Shown: one piece after another, positions 28,202 to 52,980 of the stretch | Position numbering within the stretch: position 1 is the stretch's first letter | Layout of the letters: each line of letters opens with the position of its first letter | From: Candidatus Bathyarchaeota archaeon | Lineage (GTDB): Archaea > Thermoproteota > Bathyarchaeia > Bathyarchaeales > Bathycorpusculaceae | Direction: 5' to 3' | NCBI GenBank assembly: GCA_963715865.1 | Contig: OY970280.1 | Coordinates: 768,001 to 832,000 of the forward strand | Length of the DNA: 64,000 bases | Notes under the pieces: model-generated | The model's database searches: none | Told to the model about the DNA's origin: nothing | The model's input: the letters and a program-made list of their open reading frames with translations, nothing else | Made by a program: the position numbers and the translations under genes

Positions 28202-29029
28202 ATGAACGCACGAACAGAAAATCCATACATTAAAATGCTTAGAATGGTTTCTTTTGATATACGCAATTTTGATCCTTTTCTCCTTACCACTTATTTTGAT
28301 CTGCTACGCGGTTCAATACGCACTAGAGTTTCCAAGGAAGCCAATTTCTCATCAGAAAGATTCTTTTGGACTCGTTTTTTTCATGAGCGGAAAAAAAGGT
28401 TTGGTTATGTGATGAGATGTAAATCAGCTTCTGTTTGTTCTCCAACTACGGAAGCTATCCTCTCAGCGTTAGCAAAGCTTGAAAAATCTTTTCCAGCTCC
28501 ACTCTTGCTTATTGATGTGGGTGCTGGTCCATTTTCAGCCTTTAATATTGACAGTCTGGTCAATCGAAGCGATTTGAAAATAGTGACTGTTGATCCGTTA
28601 GCAGATTTTTATAAGGAGTTGCATAGAAAATTCCAAACGAACTATGCTTCGAATCTTGTAAAGGGTTATGGGGAGGCCTTAGATGAGCATTTTGAAAAAG
28701 ACCGCTTTCATCTAGCCATCACTGAAAATGCACTTGATCATGCGATGAACCCTAAGCTTTTCATAAGAAAATTATTCGACATCGTTAAACCTGGAGGCTA
28801 CTTGATACTAACTGGATATGTTAATAATGGCTCGATTGAAAAGTGGCAAGGGTTGCACAAATGGGATATTGAAGTGATGAACGGAGAATTGATTCTTTCG
28901 AATCAATCTAAGACAACTTATGAGAATATTTTTTCTGGCCTTAATGTTTCTCCCATCAAGAGAATCATAAAGAAAGGGGACATTGACACATATTATTTTA
29001 CTTATGTTAAGAACGATAATACCAAATAA
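28202..29029 (+). CDS. class I SAM-dependent methyltransferase
   Basis: LIDVGAGP, NALDH, VKPGGYL. Confidence 0.82.
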   Translation: MNARTENPYIKMLRMVSFDIRNFDPFLLTTYFDLLRGSIRTRVSKEANFSSERFFWTRFFHERKKRFGYVMRCKSASVCSPTTEAILSALAKLEKSFPAPLLLIDVGAGPFSAFNIDSLVNRSDLKIVTVDPLADFYKELHRKFQTNYASNLVKGYGEALDEHFEKDRFHLAITENALDHAMNPKLFIRKLFDIVKPGGYLILTGYVNNGSIEKWQGLHKWDIEVMNGELILSNQSKTTYENIFSGLNVSPIKRIIKKGDIDTYYFTYVKNDNTK

Positions 29030-29044
29030 AACAATCAAATTCGA

Positions 29045-31898: not shown

Positions 31899-32050
31899 CC
31901 GCTCTTATGGGAAAGATGCTCTCGCGCTCATTCTAAGAAATGTGATTCCAAAACAACGCCAACACGCTATGATAACCGAAACATCAAGGAAACTCAAGGG
32001 AAACTTCTTAAGGCAATGAGTTCAGCCAAACCTGAGGTCATCAAAACCAA

Positions 32051-33139
32051 ATGATTCCATTCATAGACTTCAAACGAGAACTTGCCGAGATAGGCGATAA
32101 AGTAGCCGATGCCATGCTAACGGTTCAAAAGAGCGGCCAATTTATCTTAGGCGAAAATCTAAAAGAATTTGAAAGAGAATTCTCTAGCTATATAGAAGCT
32201 CGATATGGAATCGGTGTAAACTCTGGCTCCGATGCATTATACTTGACCGTAAAAGCACTAGGAATCTCCAAAAACGACGAAGTCATCACCGTTTCACATA
32301 CCATGAGTTCCACCGTTGACGCAATAAGCAGAAATGGAGCCAAACCCATCTTCGTTGACATCGATCCCGAAACCTTTACAATGGACGCAACAAAAGTCGA
32401 AACTAAAATCTCAAACAAGACACAAGCGATAATACCCGTACACCTCTACGGTCACCCAGCAAACATGACTCCACTACTCAAAATAGCAAACGAGCACAAT
32501 ATACCGATAATCGAAGATGCTTGCCAAGCCCACGGCTCAGAATACTGCAATAAAAAAGTGGGAAACATCGGAGACGTCGGCTGCTTTAGTTTTTACCCAA
32601 CAAAAAACCTCGGCGCCTATGGTGATGCTGGCATGATAACCACCAACAACAAAGAGCTAGCAGAAGAACTGACAAAAATGAGAAACTACGGCCAATCCGC
32701 AAGATACAGCCATGACTTCATAGGCGTAAACAGTCGACTAGACGAAATCCAAGCTGCAATATTACGCGTGAAATTGCGAAAACTCGACGAATGGAATGAA
32801 AGAAGAAGAAGAACTGCCAAACTCTACAACGAACTCCTAAGCAACGCTAACGTAACAACGCCCATCGAAAGAGAATACGCAAAGCATGTGTATCACTTAT
32901 ACGTGATAACCCATAACGAACGAGACAAGCTTCAGAATCATTTAACGGAAAAAGGAATTCAGACACTAATACACTATCCAATTCCAGTACATCAACAGAA
33001 GGCGTACGCAACAAAAGTAAAGCTTCCAATAACCGAGAAAACTTGCGGCAAAATCCTCTCTCTGCCCATTCATCCATGGCTAGACGAAGACGAAGTCAGA
33101 AAGATAGCCGACTGTATTAACGAATACTGCAGAAACTAA
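32051..33139 (+). CDS. DegT-family aminotransferase, DesV/FdtB/QdtB-like (probable 3-aminotransferase)
   Basis: [70 protein letters not shown]. Confidence 0.9.
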
Positions 33140-33499
33140 AACAAAGCTACAATCGGCATTTTTTATACCACTTGAAATTCCGCTTCGTCCTTCACCAAAC
33201 TTGGTAATCACATTCGGGGTTATTCGCCAAGATATCCAGGGGCGAAGCTCCATTTAAAGTCTCAAATCCATAAGAACACGCGCGCAAATCAACTAACATA
33301 ACTGTGGGAACGCCAAACCCAAGAGAAGGATGTGAACTTGCCAAACAAAGTGAAAAGCGTCTTCGCATTCAACTGGGCATCCTTCCTGCGCTCACCTAAC
33401 TGCTAAACAACAGCGCCCGATTCCTGCTACTATTCATCTTTTGATTAGCAATGTAATATTGGTGGTAGTGGGATTTTTGGGTTTTAACTAAATTTAACA

Positions 33500-33521
33500 T
33501 TGATTAGTACGTATTACTAAA
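33500..33521. promoter_or_regulatory. 22-bp motif copy 2
   Basis: TTGATTAGTACGTATTACTAAA, 80 nt before ATG 33602. Confidence 0.6.
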
Positions 33522-33601
33522 CCAGATATACCGTTCTCGCCTATTTCACATATTTTTAGAAATTTTGCAAAAAAACCAAATTATTTTTTAGGGAATCAAA
33601 A

Positions 33602-34387
33602 ATGGAAACAATTGATAAATCTGAAATTTTCTTTATCGTATTAGCTAGAACACAAGAGGGCGTTGCAGAAAAAGCAGTTGAACTAAGAAAGCTTGGTATG
33701 CCATTTATTGTTATTTGCGGGGAAAAAATGAATCATCCAAATGTGGTTTACAGACAGAAAAAAGGTAAATTTGATGCAATAAATTTTGCCGCCAAATTTA
33801 TCAATAAAGATATTAAAATTGTATGTTTGAATGATGTTGATACTAAAATATTTAATTTCGAAAAGGCTCTTGAATCAATGCGTGGTACGAATGCTGGTTT
33901 AGCTTTCTGCAAAGTTAAGGTTAATGGCGGACCTCAGGTTCAATTTTACTCTTTAATGGACAAAATAAGACGATACGTACCGATTACATCAAGCGGCGAA
34001 CTTATGTTAATTCGAAAAAAAGTGTTCGATAAAATTTTACCCATTCCGCCTTGCAAAACAGAAGATAATTACGTTTCATTCAAGGCTGCAGAGCTCGGTT
34101 ACAATGTTCTTTTCTGTGAAGATTGCTGGGTAGAAACAAAAAGAACACAAACATTGGAAGAAGAATCACAGTATAAAACTCGAACTGTAACTGGTATCTA
34201 CCAAGCTCTCTCCTTTACTAAAACTGATCCTTTGGTTCGCGTCTTTTACCTTGGCCTTCCTCTTATTACTCCGCTTTTGCTACTTCAAGGTAAAAGGGGC
34301 GCGGCTTGGACTAAGGGAATAATTCAAGGGTTCACAAATTTTCTTAGAGGTGATAGTGCAGGAGCATTCGAAAAAATTGCGGGTTAA
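33602..34387 (+). CDS. GT2-like glycosyltransferase
   Basis: GKFDAIN, LNDVD (DxD), SSGELM, EDNY, C-terminal hydrophobic helix. Confidence 0.72.
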   Translation: METIDKSEIFFIVLARTQEGVAEKAVELRKLGMPFIVICGEKMNHPNVVYRQKKGKFDAINFAAKFINKDIKIVCLNDVDTKIFNFEKALESMRGTNAGLAFCKVKVNGGPQVQFYSLMDKIRRYVPITSSGELMLIRKKVFDKILPIPPCKTEDNYVSFKAAELGYNVLFCEDCWVETKRTQTLEEESQYKTRTVTGIYQALSFTKTDPLVRVFYLGLPLITPLLLLQGKRGAAWTKGIIQGFTNFLRGDSAGAFEKIAG

Positions 34388-34426
34388 CCAAAAGCCAGTA
34401 GTTAACATTTTTTAGAGGAAGTCATA

Positions 34427-35350
34427 TTGGAATCTCTTGAGAAGTATCCTTTTGTCTCAATTATTGTAGTAGTACTAAACATGGCAAGCATGATTGGTGC
34501 ATGTCTATCATCGCTGATTTCTCTTGACTATCCAAAAGATAGATACGAAATTATAGTTATCGATGGTGGGTCTACTGATGGCACGCTGAAAATTTGCAAA
34601 GACTTTGGCGTACAATGCTTTATCGAGAAAAAAAGAGGACGCGGCTTAGCTAGAAATGCAGGAGTCAAAAAGGCTAAAGGAGAAATTATTGCGTTTATTG
34701 ATGCAGATTGCAAAGCTTATAAAAATTGGCTTTCAATCCACGTTTCAAACCACTCTGATAAAACGATTGGTGCAGTTACAGGGTCAGTTATCGACCCATA
34801 TTTAGTCACGAGCACTAAATCTGCAATTATGGCTCATTATGTAAGTTTTGCTGAATTCGACGAAGCATTAAAACGAAATTACACCTATCATGCGCCAACT
34901 TGCAATACCAGCTTTAAAAGGAGCGTATTACAGGTCGTTAATTTTTTTTATGAAGAACTCGATGCTTATGAGGATTTTCTTTTAAGCAGAAAAATCACAG
35001 ATGCAGGTTATAAAATTCTTTTTGAACCACAAGCTAAAATTCTCCATTTCGGAATACGTGATGACTTAAAATTTGAATCATATTTGCGTAGGGAATGGAA
35101 AAATGGAGAAGCTCATTTTAAAGCTCAAGCAATCAACAAAAACATGTTCGGTAGGATTCCAATGAACCCGCTGGCATCATCTATTTTTGCACCATCAATA
35201 ATGATGGCAAGAATCGCACGTGAATCATATAAATTACTTCGAATTCCTAATTTTGCCAGACATGCAATTACATGCATACCTTATTTGTTGAGCGGAGGTT
35301 TCGTGTGGAGTTGCGCTTACGTCAAAATGTCCTTTTCCCAGAATAAATGA
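34427..35350 (+). CDS. GT2 glycosyltransferase
   Basis: VIDGGSTDGT, ARNAG, FIDADC, EDFLL. Confidence 0.9.
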   Translation: MESLEKYPFVSIIVVVLNMASMIGACLSSLISLDYPKDRYEIIVIDGGSTDGTLKICKDFGVQCFIEKKRGRGLARNAGVKKAKGEIIAFIDADCKAYKNWLSIHVSNHSDKTIGAVTGSVIDPYLVTSTKSAIMAHYVSFAEFDEALKRNYTYHAPTCNTSFKRSVLQVVNFFYEELDAYEDFLLSRKITDAGYKILFEPQAKILHFGIRDDLKFESYLRREWKNGEAHFKAQAINKNMFGRIPMNPLASSIFAPSIMMARIARESYKLLRIPNFARHAITCIPYLLSGGFVWSCAYVKMSFSQNK

Positions 35351-35370
35351 GAAGTTATGGTTAAAATTAA

Positions 35371-36534
35371 ATGATAGTTATAATTTTCAGTCCTGGTTTT
35401 CCTCCGTGGAATATTGGAGGAGAAGAGTATTACGCTTACTATCAAGCTATAGAACTGAGAAAGTTAGGAAACGAAGTTTATGTAATTGCCAGCAATATTG
35501 GCAACACGGCCAATTCTAAAGGTAAGCCACCCACGTTTTATTCATTACGTGCTCGTTTGTCCTTGGCAAGGCCTCAAATGCTTCGGTATGCATTTACCAG
35601 TATCTCTGTATTTTTCTCGTTTTTGAAATTACACTTAAGGCCTCATGTAATTCACGCTCATGATCCATACGGTGAAGGCCTGGCCGCGGTAATAGTCAAG
35701 AAAATCTTTAGGATTCCAGTGGTAATTACGTGGCATGCTGCAGAACTCGTAGACAAGGGTGCCAGGTTCTCAATTGTTGGAGATACCTGCCGACGAATCG
35801 TCTTAAAAAATGCTAATTGTATAATTGTAAACTCTGAGCTATTCAAAGAGCTAGCGATCAACAATGTTGGAGGTAAAAATTTAATTTCCAAGATTTGCGT
35901 GGTTTCACCAGGTGTTGATGTTAATAGATTCAATCCCCTGAATAATAACTCCTCTAAATCAATAGCGTTTATCCCTTCAGATTCTCAGGTTATACTCGCG
36001 GTTTGTCGTCTGGAAAAAATAAAAGGTCTCGATATTCTAATTAGGGCTACACCGCACGTTTTAAAAGAATTTCCAAAAGCCCGGTTTATCTTAGTAGGAT
36101 CTGGAAATGAAAGAACATATCTTGAAAGACTTTCACAAGAATTAAACGTGCATAACAATATTATCTTCACCGGTGCTGTATCAGACGAATTACTTCCAGC
36201 TTATTACTCAATATGCGATATTTTTACAGTTCCAACGCAAGGCGAAGGCTTTGGAATGGCATTTCTTGAAGCCTGGTCATCTGGTAAGCCAATTATCGTT
36301 ACTGCACATGCCCCCGAAATAGCGAAACTTGTGCAAAAGCATGGGAGTGGTTTCGTTGTGGCTGATGATCCGCAAGAACTCGCTAAAGCAATTATTAAGC
36401 TCCTATCAAATCCGACACTTAAAAGTAGGATGGGAAAAATCGGCAGGCAAATTGCTTTAACCGAGTATTCATGGGAAAAAACAATTTTTACCATTTATCA
36501 AAGGTATCAAACTGTTTTAAGGCGAGACAATTGA
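35371..36534 (+). CDS. GT4 glycosyltransferase
   Basis: PPWNIGGEE, SPGVD, EKIKG, EGFGMAFLEAWSSGKP. Confidence 0.9.
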   Translation: MIVIIFSPGFPPWNIGGEEYYAYYQAIELRKLGNEVYVIASNIGNTANSKGKPPTFYSLRARLSLARPQMLRYAFTSISVFFSFLKLHLRPHVIHAHDPYGEGLAAVIVKKIFRIPVVITWHAAELVDKGARFSIVGDTCRRIVLKNANCIIVNSELFKELAINNVGGKNLISKICVVSPGVDVNRFNPLNNNSSKSIAFIPSDSQVILAVCRLEKIKGLDILIRATPHVLKEFPKARFILVGSGNERTYLERLSQELNVHNNIIFTGAVSDELLPAYYSICDIFTVPTQGEGFGMAFLEAWSSGKPIIVTAHAPEIAKLVQKHGSGFVVADDPQELAKAIIKLLSNPTLKSRMGKIGRQIALTEYSWEKTIFTIYQRYQTVLRRDN

Positions 36535-37673
36535 AAATAGCTATGCTCGTTGAAAATCCTCTTTTCTTCGGTGGCGGAGAAATTCATGCTTATGAAATAG
36601 CAAAAAATCTTTTAAAATTCGGGCATAAAGTTGATTTTATTCAACTTTACGGTTTTCCTAGAAAACGCGAATTCGGTTCATCCCAAGAATTGAGTCCGTC
36701 AAGATGGGTACCTCTCCCGAATTCTAGATTTACAAATTTCATATATGCTCGAATTTTGTGGTCTTATAGCTTTCTTACGGTTCCTTTGGTTTTAAGGGAA
36801 TTATTCAAAGGTAAATATGATATTGTGCATGTGCATGGATTTGGTTATTCCTCTCTATTGATATCGGCGGTTATAGCAAAAAGAAGTAACCATTCCAAAG
36901 TATTCTGTACACTTCATAATGATTTGCTTCATCATGTTGACCACAAAGTTATGCAGATACTTTCTCAATATGTAGATCAGTTTATTGCAGTCAGCTCTTC
37001 AATCCAGAAGAGGTGGCAGATCCTTTACAATTCAGATCCATTGTTAATTCCAAACGGTGTTGATGTTTCCCGTTTTAACCGCAAAGTTGATGGTTCTTTA
37101 ATAAGGAAACGTTTGGGAATAGAGAGCAAGTACGTTGTACTATCAATTGGGCGGTTATCCAGCCAAAAAGGCATTAAATACCTTGTTCAGGCGTCATCTT
37201 CCCTCAAAAAGGATATACCTAATCTAATCGTTCTGATCTGTGGGCGCGGTGAAGAGGAAGCTTATCTGAAAAAAATGGTCAAAGACCTTGAATTAGACGG
37301 GATAATCAAGTTTTTAGGATATATTCCGTCCGATGAGCTTCCGATGTACTATGCTGCCTGTGACGTCTTCGTTCTTCCTTCAGTTTTCGAAACATTTGCG
37401 CTTACATTACTCGAAGCTTTAAGTGTTGGAAAACCAACAGTATGCGCTAAAGTAGGCGGTGCAAAAGAAATTGCTAGCCAATTTGAAATTAACTATTATT
37501 CTAAACTTGTTAAACCTGAAGATTCTGAGGATTTGGCGAAAGGTATTTTATGGTATTTTAGTCATCCTGAATTTTCGACGATTAATCGCAAGAAAATTGT
37601 TAATCGGAAATTAAAAATCTATTCGTGGGAAAATATTTCACTAAAAATAAATGAGCTCTATGAGCAGTCGTGA
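36531..37673 (+). CDS. GT4 glycosyltransferase (TTG start overlapping the upstream TGA)
   Basis: GGGEIH, IPNGVD, GRLSSQKG, ETFALTLLEALSVGKP. Confidence 0.9.
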   Translation: MKIAMLVENPLFFGGGEIHAYEIAKNLLKFGHKVDFIQLYGFPRKREFGSSQELSPSRWVPLPNSRFTNFIYARILWSYSFLTVPLVLRELFKGKYDIVHVHGFGYSSLLISAVIAKRSNHSKVFCTLHNDLLHHVDHKVMQILSQYVDQFIAVSSSIQKRWQILYNSDPLLIPNGVDVSRFNRKVDGSLIRKRLGIESKYVVLSIGRLSSQKGIKYLVQASSSLKKDIPNLIVLICGRGEEEAYLKKMVKDLELDGIIKFLGYIPSDELPMYYAACDVFVLPSVFETFALTLLEALSVGKPTVCAKVGGAKEIASQFEINYYSKLVKPEDSEDLAKGILWYFSHPEFSTINRKKIVNRKLKIYSWENISLKINELYEQS

Positions 37674-39788: not shown

Positions 39789-40166
39789 TTGTATAAACGA
39801 TTTTGGCTTATCTTAGCTGTAACTATACTCACTGATGTTACAGTCTTGAAAATAAGCGAATTTTCTGTTTTTATACCTTTACGTTGGGTTATTAGCCTTA
39901 TTTTTTCTTTAGTTCTTCCTGGTTATTGCTTGCTTGAAGCCTTGTTTTCCCCTAATGAAATCGACTTAGTGGTTAAGGCTTGTTTAAGTGTTATTTTGAG
40001 TTTCTGTCTTCTTGCGTTAGTTGGATTGCTTATAAACTATCTATTCGGCAATATTACTCTTTTAAACTTGATGATTTTCATCTCTTTTGAAATAATAATT
40101 TTAGCTACAATCGGTGGCCTCAAGCATTCACGATTTCAAGCCACTAGAAACATCATAGTCGATTAA
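39789..40166 (+). CDS. DUF1616 N-terminal membrane part
   Basis: LIFSLVLPGY.L..ALF...+D....LSV.LS pattern. Confidence 0.65.
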   Translation: MYKRFWLILAVTILTDVTVLKISEFSVFIPLRWVISLIFSLVLPGYCLLEALFSPNEIDLVVKACLSVILSFCLLALVGLLINYLFGNITLLNLMIFISFEIIILATIGGLKHSRFQATRNIIVD

Positions 40167-40501
40167 GGCACTGTTAACCTGAAAGAAGAATATAATAACC
40201 GATGGGTCAAAATGAATATGATGGCATATTTAGCAAGGGTCTATTTCGCTATAGGTGGTTCATAAACTGCTTTAAGCCGCTTGCTCAAGATTCATTAACT
40301 CATGACTTCAATGCAAGAGGGGTCGTCGGGAATGTTGCGAGTTCTAGTTTGACTGGTGTCTGGAGTGCTAATGCGTTGAGTAAAGTTAAGTGCGGGATGA
40401 TATCCATAAAAGTTAAAGGAACCCTTTTATGCGGGGAATGTGAGAAATACAATTTTCAAAATTAACTTCGAAAATTCAGGATTAAGGCTGTTGAGACTTG
40501 T

Positions 40502-41227
40502 ATGGTAAACCTAAAACGTTTTAAATTGAACAGCGATAAACAAGTATTAATAGCTGGAATAGTTTGCTCTGTTGTCTTATTATCTTTTGTAGTGTATGTT
40601 TTTACGTTACCGGCACCAACTCAGCCCATTTTTCCCATGTGGGTTGTTGAACAAAACGGTGCGATTCCAAGTTCAGAGATGAACATAACCTTAGGGAATC
40701 AATCTGGACTTTTAATTGGCGTTCAAAATCAAATGGGGAAGCTTCAGTACTGTTCGATTGTGGTAAAATTTAGGAATTTATCTTCCCCCCCGCCGGTCTC
40801 TGCCAATGCAACTGTTCAAAGCAAAGCAAGCCCTCTCCATCCTATAATGAGTTTTAGCTTAGTGCTCACCAATAATGAAACATGGGTAACACCGTTTAAC
40901 TTTAAGTTCCTCTGGGAAGGCAACATTGACAACAGCTACACTATCAATTCAGTGGTGATAAATGACCAAAGTTATAATTTAACCGAGCCCATACAAAACG
41001 GAAACTTGCAAAATTCTTCATACCAATTTTTGTTTGAACTCTGGACGAAGAATACACCAGAAGAGAACTATAATTTTTCGGGAATATGGGTATCTTCTCC
41101 ATTCTTAATATTTAATCAAAATATAAGCCTAACTTCTACTTCGACTCCAGAACCAACGCCAACTTCGATGATTAATGTTGATTTTTCTGCTACTGACTCT
41201 GTTTCATCAATCAAAGATGTACTATAA
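40502..41227 (+). CDS. DUF1616 C-terminal-like exported domain with N-terminal TM
   Basis: TM helix then ...IGVQNQMGKLQY.S+.V, ETW..PF.F, YQFLFELW; many N-x-S/T sites. Confidence 0.55.
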   Translation: MVNLKRFKLNSDKQVLIAGIVCSVVLLSFVVYVFTLPAPTQPIFPMWVVEQNGAIPSSEMNITLGNQSGLLIGVQNQMGKLQYCSIVVKFRNLSSPPPVSANATVQSKASPLHPIMSFSLVLTNNETWVTPFNFKFLWEGNIDNSYTINSVVINDQSYNLTEPIQNGNLQNSSYQFLFELWTKNTPEENYNFSGIWVSSPFLIFNQNISLTSTSTPEPTPTSMINVDFSATDSVSSIKDVL

Positions 41228-42984: not shown

Positions 42985-44412
42985 TCAAGAAGAAAGCGGA
43001 TCAGTTCCAGAATCGCTTACTCCAACATTTCCATGCAGGTAAACTTGCGTGCAATGACCTAAGCTTACTTTTGTCCCACTTATTCCGGTGAAATTGCTGT
43101 AAAGTATGCGAACGTAATGTGAGTTCTGCACATAGTCCGTGACACCGTTTGCACCAGATAAAGTCACGTTTAGAATGTTAACGTTCAATGCTGACACGAG
43201 GCATATAGCGCCATTATAGTCAGTTGGAGAGTTAATTGAACCTCCAGAAATAGTGACGTTGTTTGCTCCAATCCATATGGCGTTTGAACTCAGAATGGTG
43301 TTATTTATGAATTGAACGTTAAAAGTCTGAGAATTTGTGTAAGTTGCTAAAGGAAGGTTGCAGTTAGATACTGTGTTGTTGGTGACGATGTTGTTGTTTG
43401 AATTTAAAATGTGTATTCCTGCACTTTCACCTATATTGTTCTGCCCGTTCACTATGTTGTTAGCAATCAGGGTATTATTCCTAGTTGAAGCTAAATCATC
43501 TTCGCATGCTGAAACGTTATTGTTTAAAATATTGATGTTTTGACTCCATTCTGCCGCGATTCCCCAGTGGCTTGCTCCAGAATATTGAGTAACGTTTGAA
43601 ACGGTGTTTCCTTTGATAGTTACATTATTAACATACCAAGAGTTTATACCAACATCTTGACCCCCATTTACAACACAACTTTCTACGGTAGTATTACTGT
43701 AAAAGCTTGCGTCATTGCCTTCAATCGTAATTGGATTATCGCCAGCGTTTATCACCGTACAATTGTAGACATATCCATTACTTACTTGGCGTAAGTCAAT
43801 GCCTTGGCCTATTACATTTTGTAAAACAAGATTTTTGACGATAATATTACTGTAAACTGCACCATAAAATGATATGCCAAAGTACTGACTAAAGTAACTA
43901 CCCCATGTGCTTGTTCCACGGTGATCTACTAATGTACCTTTATTTCCATTCCAGTTACCTCCGTCGACAACAAAGTTTTGCACGTTTGATTTCGTAACAA
44001 GAAGTGAAATACTTGCTCCAAGACTTGATGGGGTGTTTTGGTAAATTGTTGCTGAGGATGAAACTTGAAGGTATACGCCAGTTTGTGCGATTAAGGGGGT
44101 ATTTAATCGGAACGACCCATTTCCTATTTTTACTGTTCCGCCTCCGTTTTGGCTCGCGGTTTGCATGGCATCATTGATTAGTTTTGAGGCATAATTGGGG
44201 TCGGTAGCGTATGTTTGCTGATTTCCTTGATTGACAGCGTAATATGTGCCGTTGCTGTATTGACCGATATAATAGGTGTTCACTGAGTAAGAGTATGATA
44301 TCTGACCTGTGCTACTTATTGAAATGCTTACATTCAGTGCTGAAAGTGCCAAAGGAGATAATAAAAGGACTAACAGCACTGCTAGAATGGCTAAAGCCAC
44401 ATTTTGTCTCAT
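42985..44412 (-). CDS. secreted right-handed parallel beta-helix protein (pectate-lyase-3-like) with pilin-like N-terminal strand
   Basis: Signal peptide, then ALNVSISISSTGQI; INDAM..A..NGGGTVKI..G.F; repeated N+TI.NN.V beta-helix coils. Confidence 0.8.
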   Translation of the reverse strand: MRQNVALAILAVLLVLLLSPLALSALNVSISISSTGQISYSYSVNTYYIGQYSNGTYYAVNQGNQQTYATDPNYASKLINDAMQTASQNGGGTVKIGNGSFRLNTPLIAQTGVYLQVSSSATIYQNTPSSLGASISLLVTKSNVQNFVVDGGNWNGNKGTLVDHRGTSTWGSYFSQYFGISFYGAVYSNIIVKNLVLQNVIGQGIDLRQVSNGYVYNCTVINAGDNPITIEGNDASFYSNTTVESCVVNGGQDVGINSWYVNNVTIKGNTVSNVTQYSGASHWGIAAEWSQNINILNNNVSACEDDLASTRNNTLIANNIVNGQNNIGESAGIHILNSNNNIVTNNTVSNCNLPLATYTNSQTFNVQFINNTILSSNAIWIGANNVTISGGSINSPTDYNGAICLVSALNVNILNVTLSGANGVTDYVQNSHYVRILYSNFTGISGTKVSLGHCTQVYLHGNVGVSDSGTDPLSS

Positions 44413-44645
44413 TTAAAGTCGGTATCTTACAGTTTCAGATATAATTAAATCTTTGTGCGGATGTGTTTAACAGATAAACAGTTTAAATAGTCTGTGACAT
44501 TTTTTAAATTTGAAAATAAATCAAACAAACTAAATAATTTGAAATAAGGGTAAATCCAGTTAGATCTTTCTTGGTTTTTGATATGTTACGGGTCACACTT
44601 CCGCGGTTGGAAGCTTTCAGTTGTTTCTAGGGAAGATGCTTTCAA

Positions 44646-44826
44646 CCATGTATGTTCATAGGCATATTTTGGACCTAGAAAAAATACGAAACCGTAATAG
44701 ACTTTAAATCTTCAGCAAAAATACTTCTAGCTTCGTCGATTGCAGCCATGATCACGTACCTCTTCTTGTATTTTCTCAACATGGCTTATTGGATTCAGCT
44801 TGTAACTGGTTTAGTCCTTTTTTGCG
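44646..44826 (+). pseudogene. relic of a Wzx-type oligosaccharide flippase C-terminal region
   Basis: PCMFIGIFWT*KKYETVIDFKSSAKILLASSIAAMITYLFL...WIQLVTG; in-frame TAG at 44676; no 5' part. Confidence 0.6.
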
Positions 44827-44887
44827 GAGCTGGAAAAAGCCTAGTGCCTAATCCAGCAGCTGGAATGATAACTTTACGAATCGCCAA
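44795..44887 (-). pseudogene. galU: 5' relic of UTP-glucose-1-phosphate uridylyltransferase
   Basis: TTG-AIRKVIIPAAGLGTRLFPA then unrelated sequence; GAGGT 10 nt upstream; stop after 30 aa. Confidence 0.75.
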
Positions 44888-45471
44888 TACCCTGTTTACC
44901 TCTTCCCTTCTCATTTCTCACCCGTCCGTTAAATACAATATGAATAAAAAATATGAATTGCTAAATAGTTGCTAGAATAACTTGAAATCAGGACACCCTC
45001 GTCAGGGCATTGTAGATACGATGATTATGAACGAAAATGGAATTCGCAGGAACTTGCCCGTCTATTATAGTCGATAATGTTCAATTAACCCTTTCGGGAC
45101 TGCTTTCCACGCTTCGGAAACTACGCGGGTTGTAAGTAGTATTTTGCCTGATTTCTGCAGATGAAAAAATAGACGTAAATATCATCAAATATATTTACTA
45201 CCAAAACATAAGTAAGAATTCCCATATATTCGTTTGAGGAGTAATTTAGGAGAAGAAGAGCACGGTATGAGGAGAAATCAGCTAGCAGTAGCGAATATGC
45301 TCTGCTTTTCAGCAAAGGTTGACATATCCCAGTTTTTGAACTATTCAAGCTCTGAAAACGTCGCTTACACCATGATACCCGACTCTCCAACTACAACCAG
45401 ACATAATAACCCCTACCTCTATGCCAAGAGCCCAAATCTAAGTCAACAAAAACCATCAGGATGAAAGAAAC

Positions 45472-48400
45472 ATGAAAAAACTACAAATCCTAATAATCGC
45501 ATTTCTAATTTCGTTATCAATATGCGCATTCGCGAGTATGCAAGCCAAAGCTGTGGGACAGTACCAGGTGACGTTCTCCAGTTCTGTTCTTGGTGCTGAT
45601 GCTACTGGAAACTTGGTGAGTTTCAGCGTTAGTGGCGGCTCATATTCTGGTGCTACTAGTCCGATTGACGTTCCTGGCGGTTCCATCTTGGTTGATGACG
45701 GTGCGACCGTTATCTACAGCTTCGTTAATCCTGTAGCGAGCACATTTACTGGCGAGCAGTATCGGCTTGACAGTGTTACTGGTTCTACTTCTCCAATTAC
45801 TGTTACTGGCGACACCACGGTTACTGGCAATTATGTGGCTCAGTATTTGTTGACTGACTCTTTGGATTCTGGTGCGGTTAATTCTATTACTGCTTCTCCG
45901 ACTGGTGATTCTTGGTATGACAGCGGGACGACGGTTATTGTGGTTTTGAATAATGTTTGGGATGCTTCTTCCTCTACACGGACCAACTTGTTCAGCTACA
46001 CTGTTGATTCTACTCCTACGCCGGTGACTAGAAGCAATACTGGTACGGTTACTGTTCCTGATATCGTCATGAGTGCTGCTCACAGTATCAGTGATGCTTC
46101 TAAGACTCAGTATTTGTTGACGGTTACTGGTGGAAACGGCATAACTTATGGGACTGCTTCGCCTACTGGTGACCAATGGTATGACTCGGGCACAAGCACA
46201 ACAGTCTCTTCGAATTGGGTTTGGGGTACTTCTGGCTCAATGCGTACTACGTTGACAAACTGGAACCTTGATGGTGGTTCTAACCAGAACCCGGCTAGGG
46301 CTAATTCTGGAACCCTAACAACTAGCTCTGTTGCTATGTCCGCAGCTCACACGGTCAACTTCATTTCAACTATGCAGTACTATCTGACGGTTACTGGTGG
46401 AAACAGCATAACTTATGGCGCTGCGTCGCCGACATCGGACAACTGGTATGATTCTGGTACTTTTACGACGGTTAGTTCCAACGGAATTTATAACCGAGCA
46501 AGCGGAACTGGAACTCGCGTTTCATCATGGAACATTGACAGCGGCTCAAACACTAATGTAGCAACAACTGGAATCGTTTCGACATCTTCCGTCTCGATGT
46601 CAACATATCACACTGTAAACTTCAACACGGTTACTCAATATCAAGTGACGCTGGATACTGGTGCAACCAGTGCGCTTTCATCTATTACTTCACCAACAAT
46701 AAGTGGAGATAATTATTGGTATGACAGTGGCACTACAGTTACAATTGCTCTCAATGGTGTCTATGGAAGAGGTAGCGGCGCAGGAACAAGAATCACAGGA
46801 TATGAACTTAATAGCGGTTCAAACAATCCTGAATCTACAACGGGTACGTTTAACGCTTTTAGTGGTGCTATTTCAAATCACGAATATGTTACGACGGCAA
46901 CTGTAACTCAATACCAAGTAACTTTAGATTCAGGTGCTACATTAGCTCTAAACTCTATCACGACCCCAACAATAAGTGGCGACAACTATTGGTACGACTC
47001 AGGCACATCAGTTACTTTGGTTCTTAACGGAGTCTATGGCAGGTCTGGAGGCTCAGGAACGAGAATCAGCGGATACAAAATTAACGCTGGCTCCAATAAC
47101 CCTGAATCCACAACCGGCGCTTTCGTCGTCCTTAATGCATTAAGCATCAGTTCAGCCCAGTCGATAACAACCACAACCGTGACACAGTTCTTTTTGACGG
47201 TGACTGGTGGCAACGGAATCACTTATGGGGCTGCACCCACAATTTCAGGCGATACAGGTTGGTATGACTCTGGAACTTCCACGACCGTTTCGTCCAATTG
47301 GGTCTGGAACATAGTAGCTGGTCAAAGTCGAACTGCACTTACAAATTATGCTATTGATTCTACGAATCAAAATCCTACACGATCAAACACAGGAACTTTA
47401 ACGACCTCTTCTATTTCTATGACTACATTTCACACAGTTGCGTTCGCTTTGACAACACAATATTATCTCTCTGTCAGTGGGGGAAACGGTGTTTCTTATG
47501 GAACCGCTTCACCTACCAACGATAATTGGTACGATTCAGGCAGTTCTACTACTGTTTCGTCTAACTGGGAGTGGAATGTGGTTTCTGGTCAGTCCAGAAC
47601 AGCGATAAACAATTATGCGATAGATGGCTCGAACCAGAATCCTGCGAGGCAAGGCTCTGGTACATTAACTACTTCTTCAATCATCATGTCCACTTACCAT
47701 ACCGTCGTTTTTGCATCCACAACTCAGTACTATCTGATGGACGCGACGATTTCTGGTTCTGAATACTCGATCACGGCTTCTCAGACGAATGATGGCTGGT
47801 ATGACAGTGGAACTAACGTTTACGTGGTGTTGAACAATGTTTGGGGTGTCTTGGATGGGAGCAGAAGCAACCTTGTTAGTTACACGGTTGACACTACGAC
47901 TACGATGGTTTCTAGGAGTGGCAGTGGGACCGTTTCGGTGCCGGCCATAATGATGAGTGCCGCTCATTCAGTTAGCGATGCAGCTCAGACTCAATACCAG
48001 TTGACGCTTTCTTACTCTGTAAGCGACGGCGGTTCTGGTTATTCTGCCCCCTCGTTTACGGCTAATCAGTTTGGTTCTCTGTACGGTCAGACTTTGACGA
48101 CTTCTGCTGCAGGTTACTGGTTTGACGCTGGCTCTTCGTGGACTGAGACAAATCCGTTGGGAGGTTCAGGAGGAACTGAGCGTTGGCAGACTAACCAGGC
48201 AGTTTCTGGCTCCGTTAGTTCCGCTCAAACCCTTGCTTTCGTTTATTATCATCAGTATCAGGTGACTTTTGCTGTTAGTCCTTCTGGAAGTGGATCAACA
48301 TCTCCTGCTGGTGCCAATGTTTGGGAGGCTGCTAGTTCTCTTGGCATATCTGCCACAGCAAACAGTTTTTATGTGTTCTCAAATTGGACAAGCAGCACTG

Positions 48401-49626
48401 GGTCAATTACATTTAGCAACGCAACCTCTGCATCTACGACCGCGACCATAAGTGGATCTGGAGTAATTACAGGTAACTTTTCACCTGTTTCGGATCACTT
48501 TTTCTTTAACCAAATTGGTTCTCAGATTGCGGGCACGTCGTTTACTGTAACGATTACGGATGAGGATTCTTCAGGGGGAACCATTACAAGCTATAGTGGC
48601 ACGCCGACTTTCACGTATTCTGCTGGATCTGTTACTCCGTCTTCTGCGACTGGCGGCTTCTCGAATGGAGTTTGGACCGGTTCAGTTACGGTGACTGTTG
48701 CTGGTTCAGGCGTTACTATTACAGCTACTGATGGTAGTCATACTGGGACGAGTAACTCGTTTACGGTAAATCATGCTGTTGCAGTCGCTAACGTTGTGAT
48801 TTCTCCTGCTGGTTCATCAGTTACAGCTGGGGCATCTAAGACTTATTCGGCTACGGCTTCTGACGCTTACGGTAACACATGGGATGTGACTTCTTCAACG
48901 ACTTGGAGCATAAGCTCTAGCGCGGGCGGTTCATGGAGCAGTAACGTTTACACTTCTGCGACTGCTGGTGCCTGGACAGTTACGGGCACTTATGCTTCTA
49001 CGGCTTACACTGCTGGTTTGACGGTGAATCCGGCTGGTCTGGATCATTTTGTCTTTAATGCTGTTGCGGCTCAGACTGCTGGTTCAGCTTTCAGCATAAC
49101 GGTTACTGCTGTTGATGCGTATGGCAACACGGTTACAGGCTATACTGGTACGCCGTCTTTGACGGTTTCTGCTGGGTCGATTAGTCCTGGCACTATGAAT
49201 GCTTTCGTTAACGGTGTAGGCTCGACTACGGTCACGGTGACTACTGCGGGTTCAAGCGTTACTATCACGGCTACTGATGGTGGTCATTCTGTGACGAGTA
49301 ACTCGTTTACAGTGACGGCTGCACCAACTCCTACTCCAACAGCAACGCCATCACCCTCACCAACTGCCACTCCGACCCCTACACCAACTCCAACACCTAT
49401 ACCTACAGCTACTCCTACTCCCACGATACCGTTACCTACTCAAACTCCATCAGCAACACTGCCGCCAGCACCATCATTAGGACTTGTGATTATCGTCGTC
49501 ACAACCGTCGCCGAAATCATTGTAATATTCACAGTAATAGCCATCAAACGTTCAAGACGAAAACCTGGCAACGCCCGTTTTTACACAGACAAGCTGACAA
49601 TTATTATATTCCAATCCTTGCAATAA
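45472..49626 (+). CDS. 1384-aa modular cell-surface protein (WYDSG repeats, InlB-B-like repeat, Ig-like domains, PT linker, C-terminal TM anchor)
   Basis: Sec signal peptide; eight ~90-aa QY..T...WYDSG modules; two DHF.F....Q.AG..F.+T+T Ig-like repeats; PT stalk; hydrophobic helix followed by KRSRRK. Confidence 0.88.
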   Translation: MKKLQILIIAFLISLSICAFASMQAKAVGQYQVTFSSSVLGADATGNLVSFSVSGGSYSGATSPIDVPGGSILVDDGATVIYSFVNPVASTFTGEQYRLDSVTGSTSPITVTGDTTVTGNYVAQYLLTDSLDSGAVNSITASPTGDSWYDSGTTVIVVLNNVWDASSSTRTNLFSYTVDSTPTPVTRSNTGTVTVPDIVMSAAHSISDASKTQYLLTVTGGNGITYGTASPTGDQWYDSGTSTTVSSNWVWGTSGSMRTTLTNWNLDGGSNQNPARANSGTLTTSSVAMSAAHTVNFISTMQYYLTVTGGNSITYGAASPTSDNWYDSGTFTTVSSNGIYNRASGTGTRVSSWNIDSGSNTNVATTGIVSTSSVSMSTYHTVNFNTVTQYQVTLDTGATSALSSITSPTISGDNYWYDSGTTVTIALNGVYGRGSGAGTRITGYELNSGSNNPESTTGTFNAFSGAISNHEYVTTATVTQYQVTLDSGATLALNSITTPTISGDNYWYDSGTSVTLVLNGVYGRSGGSGTRISGYKINAGSNNPESTTGAFVVLNALSISSAQSITTTTVTQFFLTVTGGNGITYGAAPTISGDTGWYDSGTSTTVSSNWVWNIVAGQSRTALTNYAIDSTNQNPTRSNTGTLTTSSISMTTFHTVAFALTTQYYLSVSGGNGVSYGTASPTNDNWYDSGSSTTVSSNWEWNVVSGQSRTAINNYAIDGSNQNPARQGSGTLTTSSIIMSTYHTVVFASTTQYYLMDATISGSEYSITASQTNDGWYDSGTNVYVVLNNVWGVLDGSRSNLVSYTVDTTTTMVSRSGSGTVSVPAIMMSAAHSVSDAAQTQYQLTLSYSVSDGGSGYSAPSFTANQFGSLYGQTLTTSAAGYWFDAGSSWTETNPLGGSGGTERWQTNQAVSGSVSSAQTLAFVYYHQYQVTFAVSPSGSGSTSPAGANVWEAASSLGISATANSFYVFSNWTSSTGSITFSNATSASTTATISGSGVITGNFSPVSDHFFFNQIGSQIAGTSFTVTITDEDSSGGTITSYSGTPTFTYSAGSVTPSSATGGFSNGVWTGSVTVTVAGSGVTITATDGSHTGTSNSFTVNHAVAVANVVISPAGSSVTAGASKTYSATASDAYGNTWDVTSSTTWSISSSAGGSWSSNVYTSATAGAWTVTGTYASTAYTAGLTVNPAGLDHFVFNAVAAQTAGSAFSITVTAVDAYGNTVTGYTGTPSLTVSAGSISPGTMNAFVNGVGSTTVTVTTAGSSVTITATDGGHSVTSNSFTVTAAPTPTPTATPSPSPTATPTPTPTPTPIPTATPTPTIPLPTQTPSATLPPAPSLGLVIIVVTTVAEIIVIFTVIAIKRSRRKPGNARFYTDKLTIIIFQSLQ
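45841..47991 (+). repeat. eight tandem ~270-nt WYDSG modules
   Basis: Module starts at 45841, 46108, 46375, 46636, 46909, 47185, 47458, 47725. Confidence 0.85.
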
Positions 49627-49643
49627 GACGCAGAGGGAATTGT

Positions 49644-50051
49644 ATGATCGTTAGAAGTAATATTAATCCTTTCGCTAAAATTTGATATCCTGACCTCGTC
49701 AACATATACGATAGTTATGTAGGTGAAGGCACCAAAATAGCAAGCTTCGTCGAGATAGGCAACGCCAGAATTGGAAGGAATTGCAAGATCGAGGCTTTCT
49801 CTTTCTTGCCTCCTGGGACAGTGATTGAGGATAACGTTTTCATCGGTCCTCATGTAATAATAACAAACGACCGCTACCCAGATGCAAAAAGCAAAACTTG
49901 GAAAAAAGAGCCCGTCACAGTTAAAAAAGGCGCAAGTATAGGCGCAGGCAGTATTTTAATTGCTGGTGTTACTGTAGGTGTTACTGTAGGCGAAAACGCT
50001 ATAGTTGGTGCAGGCAGCATCGTGCCGCGTGATGTACCCGACGCCACTTAG
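49644..50051 (+). pseudogene. hexapeptide-repeat sugar N-acetyltransferase (WxcM/QdtC-like), inactivated
   Basis: MIVRSNINPFAKI*YPDLVNIY...KIASFVEIG...FIGPHVIITND..P; in-frame TGA at 49683; 12-nt tandem duplication GGTGTTACTGTA (49965-49988); premature stop before the GNPA-like tail. Confidence 0.8.
49722..49776 (+). repeat. 55-bp inverted repeat, left arm
   Basis: 51/55 identical to the reverse complement of 51374..51428, including 31 contiguous bp. Confidence 0.9.
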
Positions 50052-50088
50052 ATTCTTAGCGGGAATACAGGCAATTTTTCCAAACTTC

Positions 50089-50409
50089 TTACATTAGGCG
50101 GAAATTCACTGTCTTCGAGATTCGGCGTTTATTCAGCCAACCCATCCGTGAAAGTTGATTTAAATAGTTGCTTTCAATTGCTCGGCATCGCCCCGTAAGA
50201 TTTGATACGTCCACCGCGTTGCATTCGCCTTTAGAAGCCACAATAACGTAGGTCCTCCTTAAGTGATCAGGCAAAGTGATTAGTGAGGATTCAGGTACGC
50301 CTACGGGCTGTTGCCTCCAACCTGAGAAGCTGTTTTCAATATCGTCGAGGCGGTGACGTATACTCATCATCTCTTTGAATATGCTTTCAAGAACCGATCT
50401 CCGAACCAT
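50089..50409 (-). CDS. winged-HTH regulator with N-terminal coiled coil
   Basis: LITLPDHLRRT...A.DV...TGR.RAIESNYLNQL.RMG. Confidence 0.8.
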   Translation of the reverse strand: MVRRSVLESIFKEMMSIRHRLDDIENSFSGWRQQPVGVPESSLITLPDHLRRTYVIVASKGECNAVDVSNLTGRCRAIESNYLNQLSRMGWLNKRRISKTVNFRLM

Positions 50410-50768
50410 TTTTTCCCCTCATTTTTCCCTTCATTTCATATCAACCAACCAAGCGAAAGTACACAGAAAAAATGATTTAACATTTTTTGAGAACACAACT
50501 TAAGCGATTTGTCAACCAAACTTGGAAAGATGCGAAGCCAACTTCGCAGGATTGCAAAGACAAACTCGCAAGAACGTTTTGACATGCAAAAAAATCTAAA
50601 TTCAACAAAACAGTGCGTTCCTTCTTCCTGTTACTGATGATCCAAAGATGCTTCCTTTTTAGATTAAAGAACACCGAACCGGTCGGTTGTGTAAATACCT
50701 CTTTTCACGTAGCCAATACAAACTTTTTTCCTATTCGTGCAAAAAAAAGATAAGGTTAGAATTTTGGC

Positions 50769-51269
50769 TTAGCCTGTTCCATATATTAATATCTGGACGC
50801 TGAAAGATGTGATTCCAGTTATGCTAGAAGACACTGACAGCGTAATTGCCGCCGCAGTGGATTGCCCAGGTGCCAGCAAGGCGCCTTCTTTGTCCCAAGT
50901 TATTGTTAATGGTCCATTCGCGTTTGTTGGGTTCCAGTTGCTTGTCGCCATACTAAGCGTCAACGAAACTCCGCCTCCCGTATTTTTGACGTAAACTGTT
51001 CTGGTTATTGTTCCCCCTGGCGATACTGAACCCCAGTCTATAGTTGTCATAGGAACGGTGCAAGCACTATCAGAGTACACGCTTAAGCTCGATGAGAGAG
51101 CGTTTGAAGTGGCGGATATGCCCGATGAGGTGCCCGATGAGGTGACGATTGACCCTGATGAATTTATGCTTGTCCTTACGCTAATTGCGCCGAAAGCAGT
51201 TAAGGTCAAAGCTAATTCGACTAAAACTATCGCTATTATTGTTACCCTTGAGAATTTTCTCTGTGCCAT
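50769..51269 (-). CDS. secreted TasA/bundling-pilin-like beta-sandwich subunit 1
   Basis: Signal peptide, AISVRTSINSSGSI, VYSDSAC, IDWGSVSPGG, VYVKNTG, ends GTG. Confidence 0.75.
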   Translation of the reverse strand: MAQRKFSRVTIIAIVLVELALTLTAFGAISVRTSINSSGSIVTSSGTSSGISATSNALSSSLSVYSDSACTVPMTTIDWGSVSPGGTITRTVYVKNTGGGVSLTLSMATSNWNPTNANGPLTITWDKEGALLAPGQSTAAAITLSVSSSITGITSFSVQILIYGTG

Positions 51270-51373
51270 ATTATATCCTCATATGGCAAAGGTGCATTGT
51301 GAGTCTAAGAATTTCATTGTATAAGAGAACAACAAAAATACACATGCCACTTCTTCAAATCTCCCGCACAAGG

Positions 51374-51428
51374 TTTCAATTCTGGCGTTGCCTATCTCGA
51401 CGAAGCTCGCTATTTTCGTGCCTTCCCC
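51374..51428 (-). repeat. 55-bp inverted repeat, right arm (fragment of the acetyltransferase gene)
   Basis: Encodes GEGTKIASFVEIGNARIE on the minus strand. Confidence 0.9.
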
Positions 51429-51847
51429 AAAGTGCTAATATGCTCTATGGCGTTAACCTGAAGACAAAAAGAAGTTTCCACTGTAAGCATTAAGCGCAAA
51501 CTTCTTCAAGGCTCTAAGCATTCACAGGATGCTCAACAGTTATAACTTTGCCAAGCGTGACTTTGACTATACTATTGTAGAATTGCTAAACAACCTCTTT
51601 TCAGGCTCAAGGCTTCTTTTGCTGGCTCGATTGTCTGGACAATTGCTTTAGCGTTTGTTTGGACAAAAGAATTTAGTAAAGTTAAGAAATACGCGAACGT
51701 TCGAATAGTAACTACTCTGTTGTCTGCCGCTCTTATCGAAAATGGAACCTGAATCATTCTCGTTTGTCTTCCGGGTTCTGAGACGAAGCATCAAACCTTG
51801 GAATTACGTTTAGATAAAACAAAAAAGGAAAGAACGTGGCGGCGCTT

Positions 51848-52315
51848 TTAGCCTGTTCCTGATATCGTGATTGTGTTGCTGAAGCTCGTAATGCCAGTTA
51901 TGCTAGAAGACACGGTCAACGTTATCGTGGCAGCTACTGACTGTCCAGCTGAGAGTTGCGTCCCTTGCTGATTCCAACTTATGGTTATGTAGGTGCTTGC
52001 TCCTGAAGGGCTCCAGCTGCTTGCGGTCAAGCTTAGAGTCATCGTGCCGGTGCCTGTGTTCTTAACATAGACGGCTTGAGTGGCGGTGCCTCCGGCTGCT
52101 ACGGATCCCCAGTTTATCGAAGTTATGTTGGTAGCGCAGTTGCTGTCGGAGTACACTCCTATGTTTGGGGACGTTGTGATTGTTCCAGAGGAGGAGACGT
52201 TCTGACTGACGTTTATTGCTGCTAATGTTAAGGCTGCCAGCGCGAACGCGGCTACTGTTAAGACGACTACCACTAATTTTGAGGTTTTAGCCATTGCCAT
52301 GAGGTATTTCACCAT
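51848..52315 (-). CDS. secreted TasA/bundling-pilin-like beta-sandwich subunit 2
   Basis: Signal peptide, AINVSQNVSSSGTI, VYSDSNC, INWGSVAAGG, VYVKNTG, ends GTG; clear paralogue of 50769..51269. Confidence 0.75.
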   Translation of the reverse strand: MVKYLMAMAKTSKLVVVVLTVAAFALAALTLAAINVSQNVSSSGTITTSPNIGVYSDSNCATNITSINWGSVAAGGTATQAVYVKNTGTGTMTLSLTASSWSPSGASTYITISWNQQGTQLSAGQSVAATITLTVSSSITGITSFSNTITISGTG

Positions 52316-52644: not shown

Positions 52645-52980
52645 ATGTTAAAGAAAGAACTCTTGTTCTTTTCTGCGATAATTCTGATGGGCTTCTTAGA
52701 CTGGTTAACAACAGTCACAGGAGTTCTCTTCTTCGGAGCAACAGAAGTCAACCCTCTACTCTTCGGACTAACAAGATCAAGCATGATACTCTTCAGCGCA
52801 GTAAAACTCTCAGCAGTCGTACTCGCAGGCTTCGCATTCTACAAAGCAGCAGCCATAAGCAGACCCACAACTAACGACTGGCACTTCATAAAAAGATTCC
52901 TAGACGGAGGATATTCACTAACCTTTCTCGCCCTCACCGCAGTAGTTGCCAACAACATGATAGCAGTCTTCAGACTGTAA
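52645..52980 (+). CDS. DUF5658-like small membrane protein
   Basis: D.LTT..G....GA.E.NP motif, three TM helices. Confidence 0.7.
   Translation: MLKKELLFFSAIILMGFLDWLTTVTGVLFFGATEVNPLLFGLTRSSMILFSAVKLSAVVLAGFAFYKAAAISRPTTNDWHFIKRFLDGGYSLTFLALTAVVANNMIAVFRL

Follow-up and report, generated by a model that had tools for sequence, protein, structure and literature searches.

Three secreted proteins at the locus

A 64-kb stretch of a genome from the archaeal class Bathyarchaeia, analysed here at its full length and called the window, encodes three secreted proteins that share one short strand motif at the N-terminus. Two of them, S1 and S2, are small immunoglobulin (Ig)-like proteins, and the third, BH, is a beta-helix protein. 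The window is part of a single-contig genome of 2.35 Mb with 43% G+C, for which metagenome-assembled genomes of Candidatus Bathyarchaeota/Bathyarchaeia supply the closest named protein relatives. Near-identical DNA is contained in a peat metagenome run, in pieces matching at 99% or more; no RNA run was listed among the public runs that hold it. The three genes and the motifs are as follows (aa, amino acids; AF2, AlphaFold2).

51848..52315, minus strand: S2, 155 aa, secreted Ig-like protein; signal peptide 1-32, N-terminal strand at about 33-46, seven-strand core 52-154
52178..52219, minus strand: N-terminal strand motif of S2, AINVSQNVSSSGTI, located by pattern and profile search
50769..51269, minus strand: S1, 166 aa, paralog of S2 in which a Ser-rich linker (~20 residues) separates the N-terminal strand from the core
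51147..51188, minus strand: N-terminal strand motif of S1, AISVRTSINSSGSI, located by pattern search
42985..44412, minus strand: BH, 475 aa, secreted right-handed beta-helix protein (Pfam Beta_helix, AF2, Foldseek)
44299..44340, minus strand: N-terminal strand motif of BH, ALNVSISISSTGQI, located by pattern search and modelled undocked

Each of the three N-termini consists of a basic n-region, a hydrophobic segment and then the 14-residue motif A[IL][SN]V...[IV][SN]S[ST]G.I, which stands right behind a conserved predicted signal-peptidase-I site. An earlier note on this DNA had pointed to one motif behind the signal peptides of three secreted proteins, and both the open reading frames (ORFs) and the motif positions bear this out. 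S1 and S2 are paralogs (51% identity, phmmer E ~1e-31) and both have the beta-rich domain described there, with I.WGSV..GG....VYVKNTG, a single Cys in VYSDS.C and a terminal GTG. The third protein is an unrelated beta-helix, as had been proposed. It matches Pfam Beta_helix (PF13229) with E 1.7e-12, and its AF2 model, with a mean confidence (predicted local distance difference test, pLDDT) of 90, is a right-handed parallel beta-helix. Foldseek matches with E of 1e-8 to 1e-5 include the AlgE4/AlgE6 epimerases, GH28, phage tailspikes, the PfbA adhesin and the matrix lyase RbmB. These resemblances suggest that BH is probably a polysaccharide-modifying or polysaccharide-binding enzyme-like protein of undefined chemistry.

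When all six-frame ORFs of the genome were searched, the strict regular expression matched exactly S1, S2 and BH, and a looser one added two S paralogs elsewhere in the genome. Two further, more distant paralogs were found by phmmer, which gives six in the genome. A non-circular test of chance similarity used a hidden Markov model built only from S-family N-termini of other organisms, with 10,559 six-frame stop-to-stop frames of at least 60 aa as the search space. BH was the top non-family ORF (E 0.015, 15 bits), followed by an ORF with E 0.12. At least 11 BH homologs from other metagenomes also have the I.S[ST]G.I half of the motif (phi-x-S-[ST]-G-x-phi) at the N-terminus, just past their signal peptide.

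The S family and its predicted processing site

Judged by sequence, S1 and S2 are members of a large family of small Bathyarchaeial surface proteins. No characterised member was found, and all matches in Pfam and NCBIfam are sub-threshold (HYDIN_VesB_CFA65-like_Ig, ASH, DUF7507, Cep192_D4 and choice_anch_D). Of the 81 genomes sampled from the order, 51 contain the family, which is represented in 34 of 46 genera and has one to seven copies per genome. Several, often clustered paralogs per genome are the pattern of major and minor subunits seen in pilus systems, and we count this in favour of assembly. A word-indexed search yielded at least 419 clusters at 90% identity. An exhaustive profile search yielded 198 representatives (50% identity) at E <=1e-30 and 3190 at E <=1e-3, the weaker part of which certainly includes generic ASH-like domains.

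The pattern (T/A)-x-(G/A/S) is conserved directly before the strand: position -1 is G, A or S in 116 of 120 members and position -3 is T, A, V or S in 117, while the sequence of the h-region varies across the family. Small residues at -1 and -3 are the classic signal peptidase I rule, which argues that the strand is very probably the mature N-terminus of the S proteins. The genome encodes one archaeal signal peptidase I (C1:1613854), about 0.8 Mb from the window, and the window itself contains no SipW-like peptidase, in agreement with the earlier note. This supports processing of S proteins by the general signal peptidase.

The strand alternates, with I/V/T/I/S/G/I at positions 2, 4, 6, 8, 10, 12 and 14 and Ser/Asn at the odd positions. 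Its Gly (G44 in S2) is invariant across the family, and an N-x-S/T sequon is present in 79 of 123 motifs. Exactly one Cys occurs past residue 30 in 153 of 197 normal-length members.

A different reading of the N-terminus is an uncleaved signal anchor. Here S and BH would be type-II membrane-tethered proteins, and the strand would be a juxtamembrane element contacting a common partner, e.g. the DUF1616 protein or the giant surface protein encoded nearby. Indeed, in P0183, P0176 and P0279 a long Pro/Thr stalk connects a membrane segment to the core, and genes for DUF1616 and a giant anchored protein recur as neighbours. Moreover, JGI labels a few members FlaG/FlaF-like, and FlaG/FlaF proteins retain an uncleaved N-terminal helix. 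However, small residues at -1/-3 stand exactly ahead of the strand in ~97% of 120 members, where a mere anchor needs none, and the h-region is variable. We therefore regard the signal anchor as unlikely.

It is far less probable still that the S proteins are archaeal type IV pilins, in which the N-terminal helix is kept as filament core after cleavage by prepilin peptidase. The model does combine an N-terminal helix with a beta-sandwich, Foldseek lists the Sulfolobus Aap pilin, and genes for a prepilin peptidase and three T2SSE ATPases are present in the genome. One family sequence, P0297, has a canonical KA/LSPVIAT start before the core. But the other 267 family sequences lack a [KR][GA]-type class III site (1/268 overall), the conserved cleavage pattern lies after, not before, the hydrophobic segment, and that segment varies in its h-region. 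No gene for a pilus ATPase or platform protein lies near any of the six paralogs, the T2SSE genes being at 0.84, 1.08 and 1.17 Mb, and the prepilin peptidase gene is likewise located away from the window. As to P0297 itself, this metagenomic sequence reads KNAKA/LSPVIATIILIAVTV ahead of the S core and is preceded in frame by an S-type signal and a partial strand, the sole such case in 268.

Fold of the S subunits

In the AF2 monomer model of S2, built on a 56-sequence alignment with pLDDT 91, a signal-peptide helix is followed by the motif strand (39-48), which docks on its own domain with pLDDT ~95, and by seven core strands (52-154). Docking of the strand in cis decides nothing, because donor-strand subunits such as TafA are modelled likewise. 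The resemblance of the S2 model to the "closed" state modelled for TafA (PMC11821415) can be counted in favour of assembly.

The core is a seven-strand s-type Ig sandwich of ~105 residues with the signature FG.V..G....v.v.N.G, which places it in the PapD-like/ASH superfamily. Judged by the S2 model, S subunits are thus PapD/ASH-type Ig domains, not TasA/AbpA-like jelly rolls. Whole MSP/PapD-like domains align to residues 50-155 of S2. Foldseek against the PDB gave weak matches, with template modelling (TM) scores of 0.3-0.43, and self-complemented FimA was on top (E 4e-4, TM 0.35-0.43). TasA was not among the best 50 matches listed for the S2 model (VIA-align, Foldseek). A family-profile search of PDB sequences yielded only an ASH-domain protein.

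In the ESM Atlas, the core fold recurs in other architectures. It is found in 214-aa Bathyarchaeota proteins with Dockerin_1 (95% of members) and inside 652-aa S_layer_C proteins (rmsd 1.2 over 106 residues). These fusions hint at a cohesin-dockerin-like display and at a link to the S-layer in this lineage.

The N-terminal strand as a separable unit

In several S-family members the strand is set apart from the core by Ser- or Pro/Thr-rich linkers, the longest found by pattern having 85 residues. An example is provided by a paralog in the congeneric genome G038, in which the strand is followed by the Pro/Thr-rich TPTSTPAPTPPPSTPTPTP and then the core. P0222 and P0281 also carry long linkers, and some other members have long low-complexity linkers or duplicated strands.

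The beta-helix proteins give a similar picture. In the AF2 model of BH, residues 22-42, which include the whole motif, have pLDDT <50 and no secondary structure, while the helix is modelled at >=90. The BH relative P0149 has a Pro/Thr linker between strand and helix, and longer relatives have other sequence placed behind the strand. Some BH homologs or orthologs lack the strand altogether, and therefore it is not part of the helix fold. Retention of the buried-face residues where they have no partner in cis implies a partner in trans, and in the models the only surface known to accommodate the strand is the S domain.

Taken together, the conserved motif, the modular linkers and the undocked state in the BH model support the N-terminal strand as a conserved portable unit of several small Ig-like paralogs and an unrelated beta-helix protein, and the earlier claim of one N-terminal strand shared across different folds stands. 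A census of other cargo proteins could not be based on the N-terminal motif profile (A2), which matched only 6 of 151 genomes of the class, because it is too short and specific.

S1 and S2 could also be monomeric surface proteins (glycan-binding, lectin-like or S-layer-associated), with the N-terminal strand as an intramolecular edge strand and the likeness of BH resulting from preferences common behind signal peptides (cleavage, sequons, Ser/Thr). The confident docking of the strand on its own domain favours this possibility, as do the complete seven-strand sandwich, nearest to non-polymerising ASH/MSP/PapD-like domains, and the sequons in the motifs. It also fits the recurrence of the core in dockerin-bearing and S_layer_C proteins and an E value of only 0.015 for BH. 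However, it leaves unexplained the buried-face residues and invariant Gly in BH proteins, where the strand is undocked or separated by Pro/Thr, and the Pro-rich linkers of 20 to ~85 residues in S paralogs. In addition, a third of the motifs have no sequon, and genome-wide the motif is limited to this gene set and is not general to secreted proteins. We consider the monomer a serious possibility, albeit on the unlikely side.

Comparison with known strand-donation systems

The earlier note described S1 and S2 as TasA/bundling-pilin-like. If they were divergent homologs of TasA or AbpA, they would form a TasA-type fibre. The Sec signal, N-terminal strand and beta-rich body are loosely alike, and x-phi-x-S-G-[ST]-phi presumably resembles the start of TasA and camelysin. 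But no Peptidase_M73 match exists in the proteins or the genome. For PF12389 there was no match to S1/S2 at E <=0.1 and none genome-wide at E <=1, and the Bacillus subtilis control was matched. TIGR04088 has no match on S1, S2 or BH, and the only structure-database sequence retrieved by the family profile is the ASH-domain protein mentioned above. This largely refutes kinship with TasA or AbpA at the family level, and we regard homology as scarcely credible. No sequence relationship was found to substantiate the "TasA/bundling-pilin-like" label, and the modelled fold is a small PapD/ASH-type Ig sandwich, not a jelly roll. The "+.PG...+.N.G" pattern cited in support of the label is present in the S proteins; it is, however, a generic ASH/PapD-like Ig signature and not TasA-specific.

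Two candidate links were rejected on the way. The sole above-cut-off match of TIGR04088 in the genome (C1:5259-5324, L008, 25.4 bits) is a false positive inside a cytoplasmic aminotransferase, GLAGAATLAAFNDTEF, which is worth knowing when this model meets six-frame translations. A lead to DUF1102 from protein-atlas embedding (0.89) came to nothing, as PF06510 is absent from both the proteins and the genome.

The nearest parallels lie in the layout. The archaeal bundling pili (ABP), threads, Tafi and cannulae are filaments that assemble by strand donation after Sec or Tat export and use no dedicated chaperone (PMC9245690, PMC9715654, PMC11821415, PMC12337348, 10.1101/2024.12.30.630787). As in Tafi (Tat-fimbriae; pilins TafA/TafE, tip protein TafC) and their Sec-dependent DUF1102 relatives of Thermococcales and Archaeoglobales, the S subunits are small beta-sandwiches of ~150-200 aa with several paralogs. 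Their strand is at the predicted mature terminus, and models of the monomer show it folded back (PMC11821415, PMC12337348). Only the N-terminal ~40 residues of TafA are found again in TafC and other proteins of haloarchaea (PMC11821415); similarly, BH and its relatives would be accessory or tip proteins that share the N-terminal donor region and have an unrelated body, which is an analogy of layout only. The S proteins are unrelated to Tafi in sequence and would depend on Sec, not Tat, export. Genome profile searches found neither a DUF5305 (TafG) partner nor a TafD-type peptidase.

The TasA-TapA-SipW system of Bacillus subtilis and the AbpA-AbpB system of Pyrobaculum likewise combine Sec secretion, an N-terminal strand and a second strand-bearing protein (PMC9674648, PMC10151520, PMC9245690). 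Their subunits polymerise through the N-terminal donor strand, and the same strand is presented by TapA and AbpB (PMC9674648, PMC10151520, PMC9245690); thus, TapA presents a TasA donor strand (PMC10151520). With AbpA the S proteins would share archaeal processing by the general signal peptidase, and with both TasA and AbpA an association with biofilm or exopolysaccharide (EPS) functions. The S core, as modelled, differs in being a much smaller Ig-type domain and not a jelly roll (TasA has ~200 residues), and the partner is a beta-helix instead of a TapA-like sandwich.

The Sulfolobus threads (Saci_0406) and Pyrodictium cannulae (CanA) are also built from Sec-secreted beta-rich subunits with no dedicated machinery in the locus. 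Both assemble by chaperone-free donor-strand complementation of heavily glycosylated subunits (PMC9715654; 10.1101/2024.12.30.630787). In contrast to these, the S proteins have no detectable sequence or specific structural similarity to them; their isopeptide and Ca2+ features have no identified counterpart, the single conserved Cys being all that is present. Finally, the PapD-like/ASH/MSP domains (chaperone domain 1, the ASH domains of HYDIN and CEP192, choice-of-anchor D) share the signature F/W-G-x-V-x-x-G...V-x-[IV]-x-N-x-G with the S core. However, those domains mostly occur within larger proteins or chaperones and have no conserved free N-terminal strand behind a signal peptide, whereas S stands alone as a secreted domain with an extra strand.

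Gene neighbourhood

Other features of the window that surround the S and BH genes are listed below.

50089..50409, minus strand: TrmB-like winged-helix regulator, weak Pfam TrmB match, downstream of S1
45472..49626, plus strand: giant surface protein, 1384 aa, repeat-rich, with Pro/Thr stalk and C-terminal membrane anchor
39789..41227, plus strand: DUF1616 membrane protein, read as two ORFs (39789-40166 and 40502-41227)
25578..37673, plus strand: surface-glycan cluster with pyruvyl transferase, GT4 and GT2 glycosyltransferases, methyltransferase, two radical-SAM enzymes and DegT aminotransferase
52645..52980, plus strand: DUF5658 small membrane protein, divergently oriented from S2; also adjoins S genes in the congeneric G038
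49722..49776, no strand assigned: left arm of a 55-nt inverted repeat, with the regulator and S1 between its arms
51374..51428, no strand assigned: right arm of the repeat, 93% complementary to the left arm

The S genes are accompanied by the genes for the TrmB-like winged helix-turn-helix protein, the 1384-aa anchored protein, BH, a methyltransferase and DUF1616 and by the 12-kb glycan cluster. No Pfam family matches the giant protein. It shares its C-terminal 400 aa (56% identity) and its signal peptide (89% identity over 27 aa) with a 1260-aa Big_3_5 protein encoded beside three S genes in another genome (L006), while the middle repeats differ.

Parts of this arrangement recur in other genomes. 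In contig_42719, three S genes adjoin a homolog of the giant protein and are followed by genes for a flippase, glycosyltransferases, DUF1616 and a strand-bearing 738-aa BH. In L023, a strand-bearing BH gene has a 4-nt overlap at its start with an S gene that, as called, lacks a signal peptide. L007 has a regulator homolog of 75% identity behind its S gene, with DUF1616 and glycan genes nearby. Three S genes, a regulator homolog and DUF5658 are clustered in the congeneric G038, and DUF1616 adjoins BH in L024/L025. These cases support linkage of the S and BH genes, in several genomes, both with one another and with a surface-glycan cluster, so the earlier suggestion that the system is encoded alongside EPS genes agrees with both the adjacent cluster and the recurring S/BH/DUF1616/glycan association. 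In contrast to the S genes of the window, the paralogs at 1.666 and 1.698 Mb are solitary; no assembly machinery lies near them, and one is located among hydrogenase-maturation genes. The other two paralogs outside the window lie around 0.587 and 1.469 Mb.

Several further observations concern individual genes. The two DUF1616 ORFs, which match positions 3-124 and 157-271 of the profile, are separated by an ORF of 87 aa. They represent either one split or pseudogenised gene or two separate genes, and their relatives have 181 aa and 293 aa. The left arm of the inverted repeat is just upstream of a hexapeptide-acetyltransferase fragment (49806-50051), and contigs of related peat strains skip 51343-51668, right arm included. 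No strand-changing joint that would mark inversion of the repeat-flanked segment was seen in contigs of four peat metagenome runs, the contigs being too short to exclude inversion. One distant S paralog, ILTVTQQITSTGQI (C1:1698487-1698948; L020:7485-7895, minus strand), lies ~1.6 kb from a Phage_tube_2 protein (E 1.4e-16). Some S-family clusters of the ESM Atlas are labelled Uroviricota, and archaeal viruses or prophages may make use of the S domain as well.

Proposed assembly of S and BH

The course of assembly that we infer would begin with export of the S proteins by Sec and cleavage by the general signal peptidase I at (T/A)-x-(G/A/S). The mature N-terminus would be a 14-residue amphipathic beta-strand, with I/V/T/I/S/G/I on one face and Ser/Asn, often with N-glycosylation sequons, on the other. 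It would be joined, directly or via a flexible Ser- or Pro/Thr-rich linker, to the seven-strand PapD/ASH-like Ig sandwich. Acting as an intermolecular plug, the strand may join the edge of a sheet in the next S domain through swapping of a donor strand or an edge strand, which could link S subunits into a short chain or thin fibre with no chaperone. BH would carry the strand as a free N-terminal extension and could be tethered by it to an S subunit at one end. The surface glycan produced by the neighbouring cluster would be the probable substrate or place of action of the resulting S/BH unit.

The layout matches that of archaeal and bacterial strand-donation filaments, and therefore we favour an assembly in which the strand joins S subunits without a chaperone and also tethers BH, to which we assign a probability of roughly 0.4. 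Of the earlier fibre interpretation, the portable strand and the gene linkage are retained, but not the kinship with TasA and bundling pilins.

Several points weigh against this assembly. The Ig core with its seven strands looks complete without the N-terminal strand, and therefore it has no obvious missing-strand groove of the chaperone-usher pilin kind. The folds nearest to S2 belong to modules that do not polymerise (ASH, MSP, chaperone domain 1 and Cox11), and known donor-strand pilins score against it at background level only. Many family members consist of a membrane segment, stalk and core with no recognisable full strand; together with the cores in Dockerin_1 and S_layer_C proteins, these strandless stalked members indicate that the domain serves non-fibre settings. 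The motif match of BH, taken alone, is statistically modest; it is strengthened by the identical position after the cleavage site and by the recurrence of the half-motif in BH homologs. No BH ortholog, with or without the strand, was found at E <=1e-30 in the 80 other sampled genomes of the order; strand-bearing BH is thus rare, and S proteins would mostly work without BH. Finally, no anchor, initiator or dedicated peptidase for S assembly was identified.

A bolder form of the strand-mediated assembly, which we hold to be doubtful, is that strand-swap fibres of a new class exist in Bathyarchaeia, assembled without a chaperone from Ig subunits of the PapD/ASH type that have no relationship to TasA, AbpA, thread and Tafi pilins. 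Such a fibre would be a modular rack for polysaccharide-active beta-helix enzymes and other cargo attached via the transferable 14-residue strand, possibly locked by the conserved single Cys.

Significance

Bathyarchaeia are among the most abundant archaeal groups in anoxic sediments and peat and are mostly uncultured. To our knowledge, nothing has been established experimentally about their cell surface, and we know of no described surface appendage. The S family is widespread, occurs in multiple copies and lacks any annotation. If the strand serves for docking or donation, the family would be a structurally distinct addition to the archaeal strand-donation filaments, and the S/BH system, if real, would be a variant within the known strand-donation systems. 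It would also provide a simple way, independent of sortases, cohesins and lipid anchors, of displaying enzymes on a fibre or envelope. Even without a fibre, the new family, its processing site and the recurring surface-glycan locus can be used for the annotation of Bathyarchaeial genomes.

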